A stretch of DNA of 64,000 nt from Eledone cirrhosa (Eukaryota): positions 393,700,001 to 393,764,000 of the forward strand of contig OZ024740.1 in NCBI GenBank assembly GCA_964016885.1, in the 5' to 3' direction. The position numbers were made by a program, and so were the translations under genes. This document shows positions 28,955-56,893 of this stretch, in pieces. Within the stretch, counting starts at the first letter, position 1. Every line of letters begins with the position of its first letter. The notes beneath the pieces were generated by a model. The model made no database searches, was not told where the DNA came from, and worked only from the letters and a program-made list of their open reading frames with translations.

Positions 28955-29190
28955 AGGAAAAGAAATCGAAAATGGAGTCTTTTTAATAATATTTATTTGT
29001 TTCCTTTACCAGTTTCACAGTTCTTATGCTTTTCAACAGTAGAATTGAAATGGAGGGTTTGTGGTTTTTCTCGGATCTGCGAATCTCTCAATTCTACTTT
29101 TGAAAAGCATAAGAACTGCGAAACCGGTAAAGGAAACAAATAAATATTCTTAAAAAGACTCCATTTGCATTTTAGATTTCTTTTCCTTAT
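28955..29190. repeat. Inverted repeat (about 95-bp arms) with a hammerhead motif in each arm
   Basis: The arms are reverse complements around a ~38-bp spacer. Confidence 0.75.
29095..29134 (+). ncRNA. Minimal type I hammerhead motif, U3-A8 variant
   Basis: UUGAAAA-GCA(UAAGAAC)UGC-GAA-ACCGGU-A, with a palindromic stem III, a GUA cleavage triplet and a short stem I (CUU/AAG). Confidence 0.55.
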
Positions 29191-35009: not shown

Positions 35010-36005
35010 CTGGGTGCCCCTCCTACTGTTAACCACATTTACAGTGTGTGCTGGGTGCTTTTTGTCATGTCACCTACACAACCACTTTATAGTGTGAACT
35101 GGGCACTTGTCATGACGCCTACACGACCACTTTACAGTGTGGACTGGCCACTTTTTGTTGTGACACCTACACAACCACTTTACAGTGTGGACTGGGCACT
35201 TTTTGTCGTGATACCTACACGACCACTTTACAGTGTGGACTGGGTGCTTTTTGTTATGGCACCTAGACGACCACTTTATAGTGTGAACTGGGCACTTGTC
35301 ATGACGCCTACACGACCACTTTACAGTGTGGACTGGCCACTTTTTGTTGTGACACCTACACAACCACTTTACAGTGTGGACTGGGCACTTTTTGCTTTTT
35401 GTCGTGATACCTATACAACCACTTTACAGTGTGGACTGGGTGCTTTTTGTTATGGCACCTAGACGACCACTTTACAGTGTGGACTGGGTGCTTTTTGTCG
35501 TGATACCTACACGACCACTTTACAGTGTGGACTGGGCACTTTTTGTCATGGCACCTAGACGACCAATTTACAGTGTGGACTGGGTGCTTTTTGTTATGGC
35601 ACCTAGACGACCACTTTACAGTGTGGACTGGGTGCTTTTTGTCATGGCACCTAGACGACAACTTTACAGTGTGGACTGGGTGCTTTTTGTCATGGCACCT
35701 AGACGACCACTTTACAGTGTGGACTGGGTGCTTTTTGTCGTGGCACCTAGACGACAACTTTACAGTGTGGACTGGGCACTTTTTGTCATGGCACCTAGAC
35801 GACCACTTTACAGTGTGGGCTGGGTGCTTTTTGTTATGGCACCTAGACGACCACTTTACAGTGTGGACTGGGTGCTTTTTGTCATGGCACCTAGACGACC
35901 ACTTTACAGTGTGGACTGGGTGCTTTTTGTCGTGATACCTACACGACCACTTTACAGTGTGAACTGGGCACCTTTGTCTTGTCACCGACATGACCACTTT
36001 ACAGT
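35010..36005. repeat. ~46-bp minisatellite (about 21 copies) amplified within an RTE 3' UTR
   Basis: Unit ACCACTTTACAGTGTGGACTGGGTGCTTTTTGTCATGGCACCTAGACG. The same module is present once or twice in the RTE and SINE 3' regions. Confidence 0.9.
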
Positions 36006-36099
36006 GGGGACTTGGGATTAGGGAGTGGGGAAGAAGCTTGGGAAAATTGTGGACAGGGTAGTAGGGGGAGGTATAAAAGTTGAATGAGAGAGAAGAAGG

Positions 36100-36971: not shown

Positions 36972-38292
36972 ATGGAAACTATATTTATAAAACCATATTT
37001 ATTTTATTATATATATTTCAAGGGTACCAAAACATTGGTACGCTTTCCTCAGATAAAATACAAAGTTTGTTTTATAAATAGAGACATACCCATGAAAATC
37101 ATACCTTATCGGTTGGATATTCTCAGGATAGTGGAAATATATTATTGATTTTTCAAACTTATGGGTGAATATGCAAATGAATATGTAAATAATTGAAAAA
37201 CAACCGTTTATTTAAACGAATATGGAGAGAGAGAGAGAAGAGATAAGAGGAGAAGGATAAAATAGTGCAAGAGAGAGAAGAAAGAAAAAAAGGGAAGATA
37301 AATAAAAACTTTGAGGAAGATATATTCTAAGTATATATCTTAATAGTACATGTATTTACGATTATTAGTTGTTTAAAATTTGTTTTAAATTTGTTTATAA
37401 TATAATATATTTCTTCAGTTATAAATAAAATATAATATTTTTCTTCAGTAAATAAATAAATAAATAAATAAGTAAATAAATAAATAAATAGATGGGTATA
37501 TCATGTTATAGATAATTGTTCTAATGAGTTATGAGGATATTGGTTTTGTATTTTATGTAAATAAATATTAAGTTAAATTAAATTAAATTAACTGAGTTAA
37601 GAAGAATATTTATATTTATATGATTGAGAATAGGAAAATACGGAAACAACTCCGGTTTAATTTATTTATTCGTTAGTGTGAGACTATTTAGTCAAAATAA
37701 GTATAGATGTTGAAGATACATTTAGCCAGAATCAGTTAGTGGTTATAAATCTATTGAAAAAATATTAAAAAAATATTAATATTTATTTACATAAAATATT
37801 GAAAAAATATTAATATTTATTTACATAAAATACAAAACCAAAATCCCTCATAACTCATTAGAACAATTTTATAACTGAAGAAAAATATTATATTATAAAC
37901 AAATTAAAAAAAAATTTTAAACAACTAATAATCGTAAATCACGTACTATTAAGATATATACTTAGAATATATCTCCCTCAAAGTTTTTATTCATCTTCTT
38001 TCTTCTCTCTCGCACTATTTTATCCTTCTCTTATCTCTTCTCTCTCTCCATAGTCGTTTAAATAAAAGGTTGTTTTTCAATTATTTACATATTCATTTGC
38101 ATATTCACCCATAAGTTTGAAAAATCCCTAATATATTTCCACTATCCAGAGAATATCCAACCGATAAGGTATGATTTTCATGGGTCTGTCTCTATTTATA
38201 AAACAAACTTTGTATTTTATCTGAGGAAAGCGTACCAATGTGTTTTGGTACCCTTGAAATAAATATGGTTTTATAAATATAGTTTCCGTTTA
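36972..38292. repeat. Large inverted repeat (about 500-600-bp arms) of a hammerhead-bearing, PLE-type non-coding unit
   Basis: 36972-37571 is the reverse complement of about 37810-38292, with indels. Both flanks are near (TA)n. Confidence 0.8.
37000..37060 (-). ncRNA. Complete type I hammerhead motif
   Basis: UAUUUUAU-CUGAGGA-AAGCGUACCAA(UGUU)UUGGUACCCUU-GAAA-UAUAUA-UA|AUAAAAUA. It has a perfect 8-bp stem I, an extended stem II, a palindromic minimal stem III and an AUA triplet. Confidence 0.7.
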
Positions 38293-39223: not shown

Positions 39224-39298
<75 letters not shown>

Positions 39299-39458
39299 TA
39301 GAATTGGAGCTCTGAAATAGCAATATATATATGGATGTATATATAATGTATTTTGCAATACACTTTATGCTTAATTAAAAGCATTTTGAAGACCGTAAGC
39401 TATTGTTTTAAAGTAGTGACAAATTCACTCACTTTGATCTCAGCAAACAGGGGAGATA

Positions 39459-39502
39459 AGCCGACAAGACTTGTTTCGCTTTGGTTGAAGCTTATCAAGG
39501 CC
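39459..39502 (-). ncRNA. Type I hammerhead ribozyme, U3-A8 variant (unit 1)
   Basis: GGCC-UUGAUAA-GCUU(CAACCA)AAGC-GAA-ACAA(GUC)UUGU-C|GGCU. Stem I extends over 39435-39529 and is closed by TGATCTCAG/CTGAGATCA. Confidence 0.75.
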
Positions 39503-39774
39503 AACTACCCCACCTGTCTACTGAGATCATTGATGTTATATTCCTATAGAAATCTAGTAAATAATCAGGAGCTGATTATGCAGAGCGGTTGTTGGTCAGG
39601 CAGAAATTAAAAATTAGAATTGGAGCTCTGAAATAGCAATATATATATGGATGTATATATAATGTATTTTGCAATACACTTTATGCTTAATTAAAAGCAT
39701 TTTGAAGACCGTAAGCTATTGTTTTAAAGTAGTGACAAATTCACTCACTTTGATCTCAGCAAACAGGGGAGATA

Positions 39775-39818
39775 AGCCGACAAGACTTGTTTCGCTTTGG
39801 TTGAAGCTTATCAAGGCC
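39775..39818 (-). ncRNA. Type I hammerhead ribozyme (unit 2)
   Basis: Identical to 39459-39502, offset 316. Confidence 0.75.
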
Positions 39819-40090
39819 AACTACCCCACCTGTCTACTGAGATCATTGATGTTATATTCCTATAGAAATCTAGTAAATAATCAGGAGCTGATTATGCAGA
39901 GCGGTTGTTGGTCAGGCAGAAATTAAAAATTAGAATTGGAGCTCTGAAATAGCAATATATATATGGATGTATATATAATGTATTTTGCAATACACTTTAT
40001 GCTTAATTAAAAGCATTTTGAAGACCGTAAGCTATTGTTTTAAAGTAGTGACAAATTCACTCACTTTGATCTCAGCAAACAGGGGAGATA

Positions 40091-40134
40091 AGCCGACAAG
40101 ACTTGTTTCGCTTTGGTTGAAGCTTATCAAGGCC
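40091..40134 (-). ncRNA. Type I hammerhead ribozyme (unit 3)
   Basis: Identical to 39459-39502, offset 632. Confidence 0.75.
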
Positions 40135-40881
40135 AACTACCCCACCTGTCTACTGAGATCATTGATGTTATATTCTTATAGAAATCTAGTAAATAATCAG
40201 GAGCTGATTATGCAGAGCGACCAATAACCGCTCTGCATAATCAGCTCCTGATACATAAAGTGTATTGCAAAATACATTGTATATACATCCATATATATAT
40301 TGCTATTTCAGAGCTCCAATTCTAATTTTTAATTTCGCACACACATCCCTGCTGACCATTATCACAACAACGAACCTCTCTACTACTACTACACACACAC
40401 ACACACACACACATTTGTTTTGAAAGACTTATTTTTCAGTGACTTCTCAATCAGCCCACACAAACCTACATTTGGCGCAAAATCAATTTTTAACATTCAC
40501 ATGACCTCTGCCGACCAATCAAAATTGTTTTGACCACAAGAATTTTTGCAACACGAATTGGCGCGAAACTTATTTTAATACATCTGGAGCCACTTTTTTC
40601 ACATAAAACAGGTAGAATTTCCAAAACTAATCAGATTAGAGCAAACATCACGGGCTCTCTATCTCAAAATTTTTTTAGAAAAGCATTAGAAATGCGCAAC
40701 CGGTAAAAACTTAAAACCAAAACTGAATACTAACCAATACTATTACTAATTTTCACTTATTCCTAATAAAACTATTTTTCACTGTGAACAATTTGTCAGC
40801 ATTTTCTTTTCCATTTACCAATATATCATAACTCGTGTGTTACACCTCTATTCTTTTAAATATATATATATATATATATAT

Positions 40882-44896: not shown

Positions 44897-45000
44897 TTGC
44901 TCTACGGTTCTTATATATTTGATATATATTTTCCTTATCGAGCCCTTTTTGGATTTTAGTCTTCAATTTTATTATTATTACTATATATATATATATATAT

Positions 45001-48000
45001 AGTTTTGCCAGATTTTTTATATGAAATCGTGTGTCGAAACAAATATTGTTATACTTGGGGAGGGTCATATTTGTGTAATAATATTGCTCAAATTAATAAC
45101 AGAACACACTCACTGTTTGGTTGGTTTTCGCTTCTGTGTCTTTTATATTGGTTAACTTAATTTATTCGGTCCTCAATGTTACCATTGACTGACCAACGGT
45201 CAAAAATACAGATACAATATAAACACAAACACATATATATAGTCTAACAAAGTTCTTTCGTTGCACATCTGCAACATTGTCAGTGGTGCTATTATGTTTC
45301 CTCCTGTTGTATTGTATGCCTACGCCATCTTTATTTAGTCTGTTTATTTATTTATTTATTTTTTTTTTGTCTTCTCTGCGCATGCGTTTGCGTGTGTGTA
45401 TAGTGTTTGATGTGTGTTCGTGTTTGGGTGACTGTTTATTGGTTATTGTATTCTACCTTAGTTTACTAGTGTGTGTTTATATGTGTTTGTTGTTATTGTG
45501 ATTGTGTGTGTATTTATTTATTTATTTATACTTCTCTTAGGTCAGTATTGTTTGTTTGGGTGTTGTTATTCCATTCATTTTTTCTGTTTAGCCTTGGCCT
45601 TCTAAGTTCTATTTCGCTGGCCTCTCTGATTTGCCTATCTGTTGGGTCATTTCTATGTTTAGATATTATTCTAATTTCTATGTTGTCTATGTTACCGTCG
45701 TGTTGTTGTCTGGCATGTTCGTATAGTACTCAACCGTTTTTCGTCCTTTTAGTTCTCCCCAGTGTTGGTCTATCCTTTCACCTATGCTACGAGCTGTCTC
45801 GCCTATGTATGTTGTTGTCATGTTTCTGCAAGTACTCTCTGTACGTCTTATGCTATAGACTACGTTTCTAGTTTTACAGTTTATCCAGGGGTTTACTTTA
45901 CATATAATACATTTCCTATTAGTACAGTGGGTTTTCTTAAAAGGGTAGGTTTTGCTGATCAGGGATTTTATGGTGGTTCCTGGCTTTTCTACCTCCTTAA
46001 TCTTTAAGTGGGTCTTTCTCAGGGCCTCTCTACACTGGTTAGCTAATTTCCCTCCAGGGGTAGCGTCCACAAACATGACACTCTGGTATCTCTGGTTGTC
46101 GTACCATGAGGTGGCTTTCCCTATCTTATGTCTAGTCCTATCTAAGCTATTCCATGATTTGCTCCTGTATAATGGGCAAATTCCTTTCATGTCCAGTTCT
46201 ATGAGGATCTTATACTTCTCCGTGGCTCTTTCGTATACTCTGATTCTGTCTCTTTGGTTGTAGCCAGAGAACTGCATGCGGTTGATGAAGTGTTGGATGT
46301 GTCTTTCCATTTCTGTTGGGTCGCACATGCGGGACACCTTCTTCATCACTCGTACCAAGTCTGCGATCAGAATATTAAACTTAGCACTACTGGACATTGC
46401 TGAGTTTTTGAGTATCAGGTATTTGGAGGCCATGAGTTTAGCGTAGTGTGAGTGGAGAATTTGGGCTCTCTCGTCTATAGTGTTAATCCAGAGTTCCGTG
46501 TCTAATACAGGTAGGCTATTGTTAGGGTGTTTGGAAGGGTAGTCGATAGTTACAGTTATACTCTGGTGTATGGAATTAGCTATCTGCTGGATACTTTCCA
46601 TTGTGCTACGTTCTAAATCAAACTTGTTAGTACTCTCTAGTGGGGATGTTCTTATAACTATATTGATGTCATCTACGTAACGAGAGTACACGATGGGGTT
46701 TATGGAGCTCTCATTAAGGAGATCTTTAAGTCTCCTTTCCCACCATACCATAAAAAGGTTGGCAACGTCACCAGCTATGCTGACGCCAGTGGCTGCTCCC
46801 TCATTTTGGGTGTAGATATTCTCGTTGAATTTGAATATGTGGCCCTTTAGGGTAGTTTCGATACTAACCCCTATTGCATGTGCGACCATTTTTCTTACCT
46901 GATCATTGTTTTGGGGGGTCCGTATAGCTTTGGTCCACCCAATCCACCTTCCCATGGGAGTCCTTTTTGCCATTGAGGTTATGGTGGGGGGTCTACCTCT
47001 TATGGGTCTACTGGGGCAGAAACGTCTAAGGTCATGGCTGTCTAGGTAGTCAGTGTCATAGGTAAGTCTAAGTAGGAGGCCCAGTTCGTCTGTGTTGACG
47101 TCGCAGAAGTCTACCTCACTCTCAATGATCATCTCCACACATTTTTCCACAGCAAAATCAATGTTAATGGATGGGTACAGTGATACCACATCCATACTGC
47201 CTATTATGCAGTTGGATAGGTTTTTGTTTTTGTTGCACTCACTGATTCTGTTGAGGAGGTCCTCTGTACTGTCACATACATCTGGGGACATCTTGATTAT
47301 GGGGCGTCATTGAGAGGAAGTAGGAGATCCTGTAGTTGCTAGCTATATTTGCTCCGCATACAGGTCTTGTTGGTGGTCCTGTTGTCGGGTCGTCGACTGT
47401 CTTATGGTCTTTGCGGATCCCATACAAGGGTGGTATGCTATTGTTAGACGCCTGAAAGTTGTTGGCAGTGCGTCTGTTTGGCTTTAGGATGACGGTCCAC
47501 ATCATCATGTGAGCGTTGAGGATTTTCTCTCTCCCATCATGTATTTGCTGTGCAATTTCGCTCGTGTTGGTGATGTGGGGTTGCATAGCTTTGATGTAGT
47601 TCGGCATGCTGTCTATTGACATCCTACCAGACTTATCCGTGGGTTGACATACTACCTCACAATCCCTTGTGCGCTGCTTGAGGCTAACCAAGCCTTCTAC
47701 AGGTTTCCTCCCAAGTTGTTGGACCTCTGGTCTGCTTTGTCTCTTAGTATACCTCTCTACTATTTGTCTAATCTTATTTCTAGCTATGGTGAACTGTGCC
47801 ACTGTCTCGTCATCTATTTGTTGTGGTATACAAACCCTTTATGTTGCTACATGTATTATTTCTGTTATTACCACTGTGGTTGTTGTTGTTGTTACTCGTA
47901 TTATTACCGTTATTACTACTGTGGTCGCTGCTGCTGTGTCTGTAGTTAATGTTTCTATTATTATTATTGTGGTCGTTGTTGTTGTTCTGTCTATCGTTAG

Positions 48001-49209
48001 TATTATTACCATTATGACTATTTCTCACTCTCCTGCTATTGTTATTGTTATGACTATTACTATTATAGCTGTTATTTCTATACTCAGAGTTATTGTTTAT
48101 ATTACTACTATCGTTATTATTGTTGTTGTTGTCCGTATAGTTGTTGTTTACTTTTGCATTCCTACGTATTTTTGTGAAACACTTTTCCAGCTCCGCTTTG
48201 CACTCAATAGGGTTAATCTTTTTGTAGATGGCAAATTTTGGTGGTAGCTGCAGGATTTGTTGTTCTTGTTCACTGATTAAAGTGTTCCCATAAATATTTA
48301 CTGTGTGGTCATTGGTAAATTCTACATCAGTCATACGGATATTGTTGATGTTATCTGGGTATTTTTGTGAATATTCTATTTTTCTTTCTTCTAGTTTTTT
48401 CTTATTCATCCATTCTAATTTCTTATTGAAATGCCTATTGCATTCGTTTCGGGCGTATTTCGTTTCACGTCGAATGACGCTCATGAGTTCATCCCACTCG
48501 TTTGGTGTGGTGGAATTTCGAACTTCCTTACCGTTAATGCGTTTCTGTCTGTAAAGTTCGTTAACTTTTGTGTATGGTGTTCTTTTCATATTAACTGTTA
48601 TTGTGTGTTTTAGTCGTTCAGCTTGTGTTTTGTTTAATAATAAATTATTTACTTGTTTTGATATGTTTGTTGTGTATATTTTGAAGGAAACAGTGTTTTA
48701 AGAAGCGGACTTGTTCTGTTGTTATTGTAGTTTTTATATAACAGAAAACAGTGTATTTCAATAACCTTTCAGCTTGGCACAAGCTAATGCCATAGCGGCG
48801 ATGAATTAGTTTTGCGAGGTTTTTGATATGAAATCGTGTGTCGAAACAAATATTGTTATACTTGGGGAGGGTCATATTTGTGTAATAATATTGCCAGAAT
48901 TAATAACAGAACACACTCACTGTTTGGTTGGTTTTCGCTTCTGTGTCTTTTATATCGGTTAATTTAATTTATTCGGTCCTCAATGTTACCATTGACTGAC
49001 CAACGGTCAAAAGTAGACTATATATATGTGTTTGTGTCTATATTATATCTGTATATTTGACCGTTGGTCAGTCAGTAGTAACATTGAGGACCGAATAAAT
49101 TAAATTAACCGATATAGAAGGCTCAGAAGCGAAAACCAACCAAACAGTGAGTGTGTTCTGTTATCAATTCTGGCAATATTATTACACAAATATGACCCTC
49201 TCCAAGTAT

Positions 49210-49215
<6 letters not shown>
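45001..49215 (-). mobile_element. Near full-length Penelope-like retroelement (RT + C-terminal GIY-YIG endonuclease), frameshifted, with direct and inverted pLTRs
   Basis: ORF pieces 48645-48875, 47810-48589, 47272-47802 and 45687-47291. RT motifs are PTDKSG, GSMDVVSLYPSI, QNEGAATG and YSRYVDD, followed by a Cys linker (CTNRKCIIC) and NVVYSI...YIGETARS...H. The pLTR is repeated at 45001-45290 and 48809-49020, and inverted at about 49015-49215. Confidence 0.93.
45687..47291 (-). pseudogene. PLE reverse transcriptase/GIY-YIG ORF segment (534 aa)
   Basis: Longest open segment of the element. It is frameshifted at both ends relative to the neighbouring ORF pieces. Confidence 0.88.
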
Positions 49216-56782: not shown

Positions 56783-56893
56783 TAGAAGTGGCTACAGAAC
56801 AGCTAGTTCACCATACCGAGAACAATTGAGGATCCGCTAAGGTGAAACAATTGTTCTCGGTATGGTGAACTAACTGTTGTGTAACCACTTCTA
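56783..56893. repeat. Inverted repeat enclosing a hammerhead remnant
   Basis: Arms of about 45 bp around TGAGGA-TCC(GCTAA)GGT-GAA-ACAATTGT. Confidence 0.6.

Follow-up and report, generated by a model that had tools for sequence, protein, structure and literature searches.

A young hammerhead retrozyme family in Eledone cirrhosa with Penelope-type insertion ends

Introduction

The closest described relatives of the element analysed here are the non-LTR retrozymes of metazoans, known from coral, mussel and axolotl (Cervera and de la Pena 2020, PMC7229834). In the available text of that source, they are tandem non-coding units of 150-450 bp that carry one type I hammerhead ribozyme each, have a GC content below 50%, yield a structured monomer and occur together with Penelope-like elements (PLEs). 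That PLEs mobilise animal retrozymes via circular RNA has been a proposal since 2020, based on co-occurrence and, in frogs, on homology to terminal repeats. PLE insertions have a characteristic form. In effect, they usually bear a tail of 30-40 bp on one end only and an inverted, truncated 5′ copy, as described in the accessible part of 10.1101/2021.04.23.441226. In vitro, a PLE protein was seen to cut AT-rich DNA on both strands and to extend both, with two internal positions on the RNA serving as starts; the one-end tail and the inverted copy are explained by these two internal starts of reverse transcription (RT) together with the cutting and extension of both strands (PMC11167929).

Here, we describe an array in a 64-kb stretch of the Eledone cirrhosa genome (hereafter the window; all plain coordinates refer to its 64,000 nucleotides), for which a preliminary description had proposed a retrozyme with one hammerhead per 316-bp unit. 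The sequence makes it quite probable that this is a young non-coding 316-bp hammerhead retrozyme that ends at two fixed sites in (TA)n and is inserted by a borrowed Penelope-like RT/GIY-YIG enzyme.

Structure of the array

The near-identical 316-bp tandem units first described are recovered by TRF, which reports a repeat at 39292-40219 with a period of 316, 2.9 copies and 99% identity. Strictly, the array has 2.94 units of 316 bp on the minus strand, that is, two complete monomers from cleavage site to cleavage site and two partial flanks, with three complete hammerheads. Units 1 and 2 are the same in sequence and unit 3 differs at one base (40176). In the descriptor scan presented below, the predicted 316-nt monomers, from cut to cut, lie at 39779..40094 and 39463..39778 (minus strand); the latter is the reference unit, with position 1 at 39778. 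Units are numbered from the predicted cut, and ends are given in the RNA sense. The 3′ partial unit (39292..39462, minus strand, positions 1-171) ends against (TA)n at the distal, or "tail", putative start site, and the 5′ partial unit (40095..40219, minus strand) comprises positions 192-316. The "tail" itself (39297..39323, minus strand) lies between the two sites at which the family's 3′ ends are fixed, with position 140 at 39323, 166 at 39297 and 171 at 39292.

According to TRF, the descriptor scan and the parse of the locus (L002), the whole insertion extends over 39292..40336 (minus strand) and consists of the 2.94-unit arm and a complex inverted 5′ end. The latter contains a fold-back piece with unit positions 182-215 (40219..40252, plus strand) and a piece with positions 94-176 (40254..40336, plus strand), which joins the middle of another repeat with a 3-base microhomology. 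Both the inverted end (40219-40336) and the adjoining (TA)n target microsatellite (39230..39293 by TRF, no strand assigned) are real, as had been noted. At the right junction, the left part of the interrupted repeat is absent from the left flank; the junction suggests one of the repair type. A private 235G is present in two of the three units and may be a case of later duplication in DNA.

The unit has a GC content of 34.8%, and the array shows no LTR structure. No ATG-started frame in it is longer than 31 aa, in line with the earlier statement that the units hold no credible protein. Elsewhere in the window there are a 48-bp tandem repeat (35032-36012, around 20 copies, 85% alike) and two long hairpins (28994-29142 and 56789-56887) with weak matches to miRNA models, below the gathering score; the hairpins are probably inverted junctions of repeat elements.

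The hammerhead ribozyme

A descriptor that required the 3:8 pair and three helices was applied to both strands of the window. It returned all three of the type I hammerheads expected on the minus strand, with predicted cuts after 40095 (40091..40134), 39779 (39775..39818) and 39463 (39459..39502), as well as a further, unrelated hammerhead at 37052. In 30 dinucleotide shuffles, one loose match was obtained in 2/30 and a strict match in 1/30. The sequences of stems I (GGCC/GGCU), II (GCUU/AAGC) and III (ACAA/UUGU), the UUGAUAA core with its U3:A8 pair and the GUC triplet are exactly as claimed. They conform to the type I core, Y3UGAN R8 A / GAAA / UH, with a Watson-Crick 3:8 pair, three helices and an open stem I; an internal loop in stem I and hexaloop II are both present. 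The extension of stem I (39752..39844, minus strand, for the second ribozyme) is indeed a long helix, although with about 25 firm pairs instead of the 28 or so first counted. Its 5′ strand (unit positions 259-264, which are 39515-39520 within the reference unit) is where the family's recurrent A>G changes fall.

Folding of the minus strand gave a z of -6.17 for the 121-nt region (0/200 shuffles) and of -5.10 for the 316-nt monomer. The active fold is not that of minimum energy. In a model without tertiary contacts, the predicted ground state is more stable than the active fold by 6.2 kcal/mol and has the core paired to stem III. In this model, the predicted inhibitory ground state counts against easy cleavage. 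In Rfam, the sole match is an alignment to Hammerhead_HH9, a model built on another hammerhead group, at 24.6 bits (E 0.0016, local), below its gathering score of 52, and no hammerhead family was found at its gathering score in the Rfam search.

There are precedents for two features of the motif. A U3:A8 hammerhead is natural and active in vitro, according to the accessible portion of PMC3088659. Stem III is a near-palindrome that can self-pair at -10.1 kcal/mol, an arrangement that is also that of dimer-acting hammerheads in the available text of PMC4209133. A further point against is that only one of nine assayed dimers of Xenopus retrozymes was cleaved, as given in the part of 10.64898/2026.07.22.740005 at hand.

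The additional hammerhead of the window (core 37052, minus strand, type I) belongs to a 1.2-kb non-coding element at 37029-38244 with inverted arms of 206 nt. AT-rich hammerhead families related to it recur in many of the loci examined.

A dispersed family and its sisters

The 44-nt ribozyme has 318 exact copies in the 3.0-Gb genome (control, 0), and the unit has 963 candidate places, of which 40 were scored. The ends were parsed at 80 non-redundant loci, obtained from 114 by dropping 34 overlapping duplicates. Because a locus had to match over its full length or hold an exact ribozyme to be selected, and most come from the largest contigs, the sample is biased and favours arms crossing the ribozyme junction. 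Copies are dispersed on many contigs and range from monomers to multimers, with arms of up to 26 units and fractional unit numbers. A genome-wide search for multimeric arrays with variable start points had been suggested; such arrays are found, with scattered 5′ ends and fixed 3′ ends.

Sister families B (317 nt, 85% identity, 2766 candidate places), C (310 nt, about 74% identity, 218 candidate places) and D (82% identity) align to the unit, that of family A, over its entire length. Of 76 different sequences of the motif, 42 have U-A and 30 have C-G as the 3:8 pair, and pairs 2-4 of stem II are standard in 74, 72 and 70, with at least three pair types, in counts made by script on related sequences, with two positions forced by the search pattern and a few misparses. 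By these counts, the sister families keep the ribozyme through compensatory change, and this covariation supports ribozyme function.

Apart from the polymorphic sites treated below, units differ mostly by single-unit changes (about 0.75% per unit), which arose after insertion and bring divergence within arrays (1.5-1.9%) near to that between loci (1.95%). This small gap counts against the preferred reading. As far as the sequences indicate, the insertion belongs to a young, dispersed non-LTR retrozyme family, which is what the preliminary description had proposed from the window and what the exact copies of the ribozyme and the sister families bear out. A search of the accessible literature found no description of it in this lineage.

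Some loci deserve separate mention. At G000:C14, around 25.02-25.36 Mb, family C copies are repeated many times within a larger macrosatellite-like block. The copy at L017:2366-2859 is a diverged subtype of family A, in which stem III is longer and stem I has a compensatory change; it is two-armed (ends 140 and 159). In addition, runs X1, X2 and X5, which represent three organisms and three studies, hold contigs 90-100% alike to the unit. One of these runs may be the source sample, and the contigs could reflect either a young family common to close species or transfer.

Insertion ends

At the 80 loci, the 3′ ends of 127/147 arms lie at 139-140 (61 arms) or at 159-174 (66 arms) and run nearly always into (TA)n. 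The 5′ ends are scattered, with no pile-up at the cut site. With the distal site defined as 159-174, 46 of the 57 two-armed insertions have one end of each kind, none has two alike and 11 have an odd end. In a recount, with the distal site widened to 177 and one segmental duplicate counted once, 47/56 use one site each, none uses 140 twice, two use the distal site twice and seven have an odd end; one-armed insertions (n = 26) split 11, 13 and 2. The insertion of the window is one of the two exceptions, with ends at 171 and 176, the second of which is not in (TA)n. Families B and C also end at two homologous sites.

Both arms cross the cut site in 38/46 pairs and both exceed one unit in 19/46. 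Of the 42 clean pairs, 14 have arms of which neither lies wholly within the other; for these, a simple fold-back is ruled out as the origin of the second arm. Microhomology alone was rejected as well as an account of position 140: family A has (AT)5 there, and the homologous site of family B has only about two matching bases.

Taken together, a fixed 3′ end, 5′ truncation, an inverted 5′ copy, a tail on one end and an AT-rich target make up the footprint of PLE-mobilised elements, and all of these are found here, with 47/56 two-armed insertions using one site each. Two arms that end at one site each are the Penelope "tail on one end" signature. The earlier suggestion of mobilisation by PLE enzymes thereby gains a Penelope-type footprint, and these ends, as sequence evidence, supply direct genomic footprints for the PLE mobilisation proposed before (PMC7229834; 10.64898/2026.07.22.740005, both in their accessible text).

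Circles or multimers as template

Sites 259, 261, 262, 264 and 310 are polymorphic across insertions. The two arms of an insertion agree at 259/261/262 in 30/33 cases (chance, 0.25), and the units within one arm agree in 41/43. The pattern points to one template haplotype per insertion. Among the helix changes are A>G at 260, 261, 262 and 264, in a run of four adenosines along one strand of the long helix; every one of them preserves pairing, and they occur on several haplotype backgrounds. By a parsimony count with sites chosen post hoc, they arose 8 times or more, whereas the background rate would give 1.3 origins (P 6e-5). At sites seen at two or more unit indices, and leaving out the diverged copy L017b, A>G fills all units in 19/23 cases versus 2/319 for ordinary changes; the two subfamily markers fill all units in 16/19. 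The homologous site of family B is polymorphic for A and G (17 versus 19). In coleoids, editing of repeats is widespread, according to the available text of PMC9068888. The array-wide A>G pattern looks as if an edited monomer had been read repeatedly; it would, however, be inflated if insertions had inherited the changes from a small number of homogeneous source arrays.

Weighing these observations, we slightly favour monomer circles as a main template. A more detailed version is tentative: an RT dimer of the PLE would prime twice, 26-33 nt apart, on one 316-nt circle, and rolling copying from both sides of the break would write ADAR edits into every unit, so that RNA editing would drive the evolution of a ribozyme replicon and barcode the circle as its true intermediate.

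The strongest competitor, which we judge possible though the less probable, is a Penelope-driven element whose template is only the uncut linear multimer, with circles as by-products and arrays kept by tandem duplication in DNA. Variants common to both arms occur at the same unit index in 7/173 cases, as opposed to 2/291 at different indices (Fisher p 0.016), as would be expected if a multimer were copied twice. Nevertheless, 166/173 same-index variants are not shared, and in-register sharing could also stem from gene conversion between arms. Gene conversion could hardly explain 102G>C, however, which is found only in the first-copied unit in three independent insertions and again favours the multimer. 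Higher-order duplications in long arrays (L098, L070, L074 and a family C array), the predicted inhibitory fold and the fact that the main in vitro substrate of the anole PLE is uncut RNA (PMC11167929) point in the same direction. What speaks against a template made up solely of multimers is the A>G pattern itself, at four adjacent helix positions, on several haplotypes and filling whole arrays. The rolling reverse transcription of a circle proposed at the outset is partly supported: it agrees with the uniform haplotypes and with A>G changes across whole arrays, but some insertions, with variants in register, point to uncut multimers, and later DNA duplication alters the length of arrays.

A cleaved linear monomer without end-jumping was rejected as the template, as the 10 arms parsed at positions 1-2 mostly continue upstream. 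Reads that cross the junction cannot prove a circle, because the same junction exists in genomic arrays. Among the long arrays, a higher-order duplication of six units is present in L098 (G000:C1, 293.635-293.643 Mb), which has 26 units of family A, and also in a two-armed array of family C with 18 units at G000:C2, 44.3466-44.3521 Mb.

Search for a partner element

A broken PLE of Neptune type lies nearby (45000..49215, minus strand), with RT and GIY-YIG, an inverted 5′ pLTR and an end in (TA)n; GIY-YIG and zinc-finger motifs can be read from its translation. Its assignment to the Neptune clade is our assumption, made from its motifs and from comparison with 10.1101/2021.04.23.441226. The element is broken in three frames and is about 90% identical to a very young intact branch elsewhere in the genome, whose 1217-aa frames are 98.9-99.9% identical, end in (TA)n and have tails of 43-60 nt, longer than those of the retrozyme. 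For the Neptune-type family, the genome offers 35,111 candidate places. Among named relatives of the protein of this neighbouring retroelement, the best comes from Octopus vulgaris (66%). Autonomous PLEs are therefore present in the same genome, as in other genomes with non-LTR retrozymes, and at least five further GIY-YIG families exist. The neighbouring Neptune family, which has no similarity to the retrozyme unit, is a candidate, unproven partner.

It is improbable that the unit is instead the pseudo-LTR of a coding PLE, with the arrays as its truncated tandem ends. The order of hammerhead, 140 nt, start and tail is as in PLE terminal repeats, retrozymes of Xenopus are reported to be of pLTR origin (in the accessible part of 10.64898/2026.07.22.740005) and one array, at L104, joins a Neptune 3′ end. 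By contrast, the unit runs into itself and never into shared coding sequence in 80 of several hundred loci, arrays reach 26 units, the hammerhead is canonical and not minimal, and, when the window and the 63 PLE loci of a partial survey were searched with a profile built from four sister units, none of their PLE terminal repeats was similar to the unit. The profile did match at L186 and L163, but there it picks up copies of the retrozyme that have inserted into (TA)n next to the ends of PLEs. No similarity to the unit turned up in 30 GIY-YIG loci, in 14 PLE loci of greater length or in the 24 loci of a Poseidon-like family. The possibility that the unit was only the pLTR of a coding PLE, raised as a way in which the retrozyme reading might fail, finds no example in any locus examined, and an autonomous PLE, with a pLTR flanking an RT + GIY-YIG frame, was rejected as a description of the element in the 80 loci and the partial PLE survey.

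The array at L104:2537-5000 (G000:C2 near 287.143 Mb) has 3.4 units, is joined to 35-38 nt of a Neptune 3′ end and lies inside Neptune fragments. This junction could be an RT template switch between two RNAs or an inverted duplication of the flank; as a single locus, it is not counted as evidence. Separately, a PLE family (L242, L243, L247, L251, L252 and L214) has a compact canonical hammerhead in which, as in family C, stem II has U-U at its base. The two ends of this family lie about 125 and 165 nt after the cut, with a spacing near that of the retrozyme; no sequence similarity between this family and the retrozyme was found.

It is very improbable that the array is an artefact of assembly, or a satellite with a dead ribozyme that arose locally through unequal crossing-over. 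Later tandem duplication is real and the units of the window are nearly identical, but copies are scattered over many contigs, their paired ends are fixed, their arms stand head to head and their unit numbers are fractional; in addition, the ribozyme covaries and unit 3 differs from units 1-2.

Proposed mechanism and implications

The preferred reading, a retrozyme moved by a Penelope-like enzyme, can be set out as a sequence of putative steps. Arrays would be transcribed, and the ribozyme is predicted to cut slowly and best as a dimer, with some monomers being ligated to circles. The PLE enzyme would nick both strands of a (TA)n tract, and reverse transcription would start twice on one RNA, at position 140 and 26-33 nt further 3′. 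Both cDNAs would extend back across the ribozyme junction, covering from 0.3 to several rounds, after which they would be joined at their truncated ends or one arm would be lost. The template would have intact junctions and is probably a mixture of monomer circles and uncut multimers, and arrays would later lengthen via tandem duplication in DNA. In short, a Penelope-type enzyme likely starts on both sides of a DNA break and copies a single RNA, which would probably often be a circle.

This young family would record the reaction in its ends, with two exact starts, one haplotype per insertion and a known target. Precise in vitro predictions follow, regarding the priming sites of the PLE and the choice between circle and multimer, with a 316-nt substrate and with candidate intact enzymes in the same genome. 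If the A>G changes of the helix are edits, RNA editing would feed back into heritable repeat sequence.

Comparison with known systems

The element shows every sequence feature by which non-LTR retrozymes are recognised, including at least two units with a complete type I hammerhead and a size of about 150-450 bp. The metazoan retrozymes of coral, mussel and axolotl share with it the traits listed at the beginning, namely tandem non-coding units with one type I hammerhead each, low GC, a structured monomer and co-occurring PLEs; cleavage and circles have been shown there and are predicted here. Its U3:A8 core sets it apart from them, as do the two fixed start sites, one per arm, and the (TA)n target, which are not reported in the available text of PMC7229834. 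The non-LTR retrozymes of vertebrates (Li, Clavereau, Pollet 2026, 10.64898/2026.07.22.740005, in its accessible part) similarly range from monomers to long multimers and have a proposed dependence on PLEs. For these, the evidence is co-occurrence and pLTR homology, and local satellite-like amplification has been suggested; here, in contrast, no pLTR homologue was found in the loci covered, and the insertion footprint itself is of PLE type. A plant LTR retrozyme, with a type III hammerhead in its LTRs and a 4-bp target duplication, was rejected on account of the type I topology and the tandem units.

The EN+ PLEs (Neptune, Poseidon and Naiad) resemble the element in 5′ truncation, an inverted 5′ copy, a tail of about 30 bp on one end and a microsatellite target (10.1101/2021.04.23.441226, in its available text; PMC11167929), as well as in two internal RT starts downstream of the hammerhead (PMC11167929). 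Unlike them, the retrozyme has no ORF, is in its entirety one 316-nt unit and has full stems, as opposed to the minimal hammerhead of PLEs (PMC4209133, in the part available). The two-armed form of the insertions has a further parallel outside the PLEs. In the twin priming of L1, both ends of the target prime on one RNA and inverted arms result, much as is proposed here. The retrozyme differs from L1 in having two fixed starts, separated by 26-33 nt, and arms with overlapping sequences, the overlap frequently being longer than one unit.
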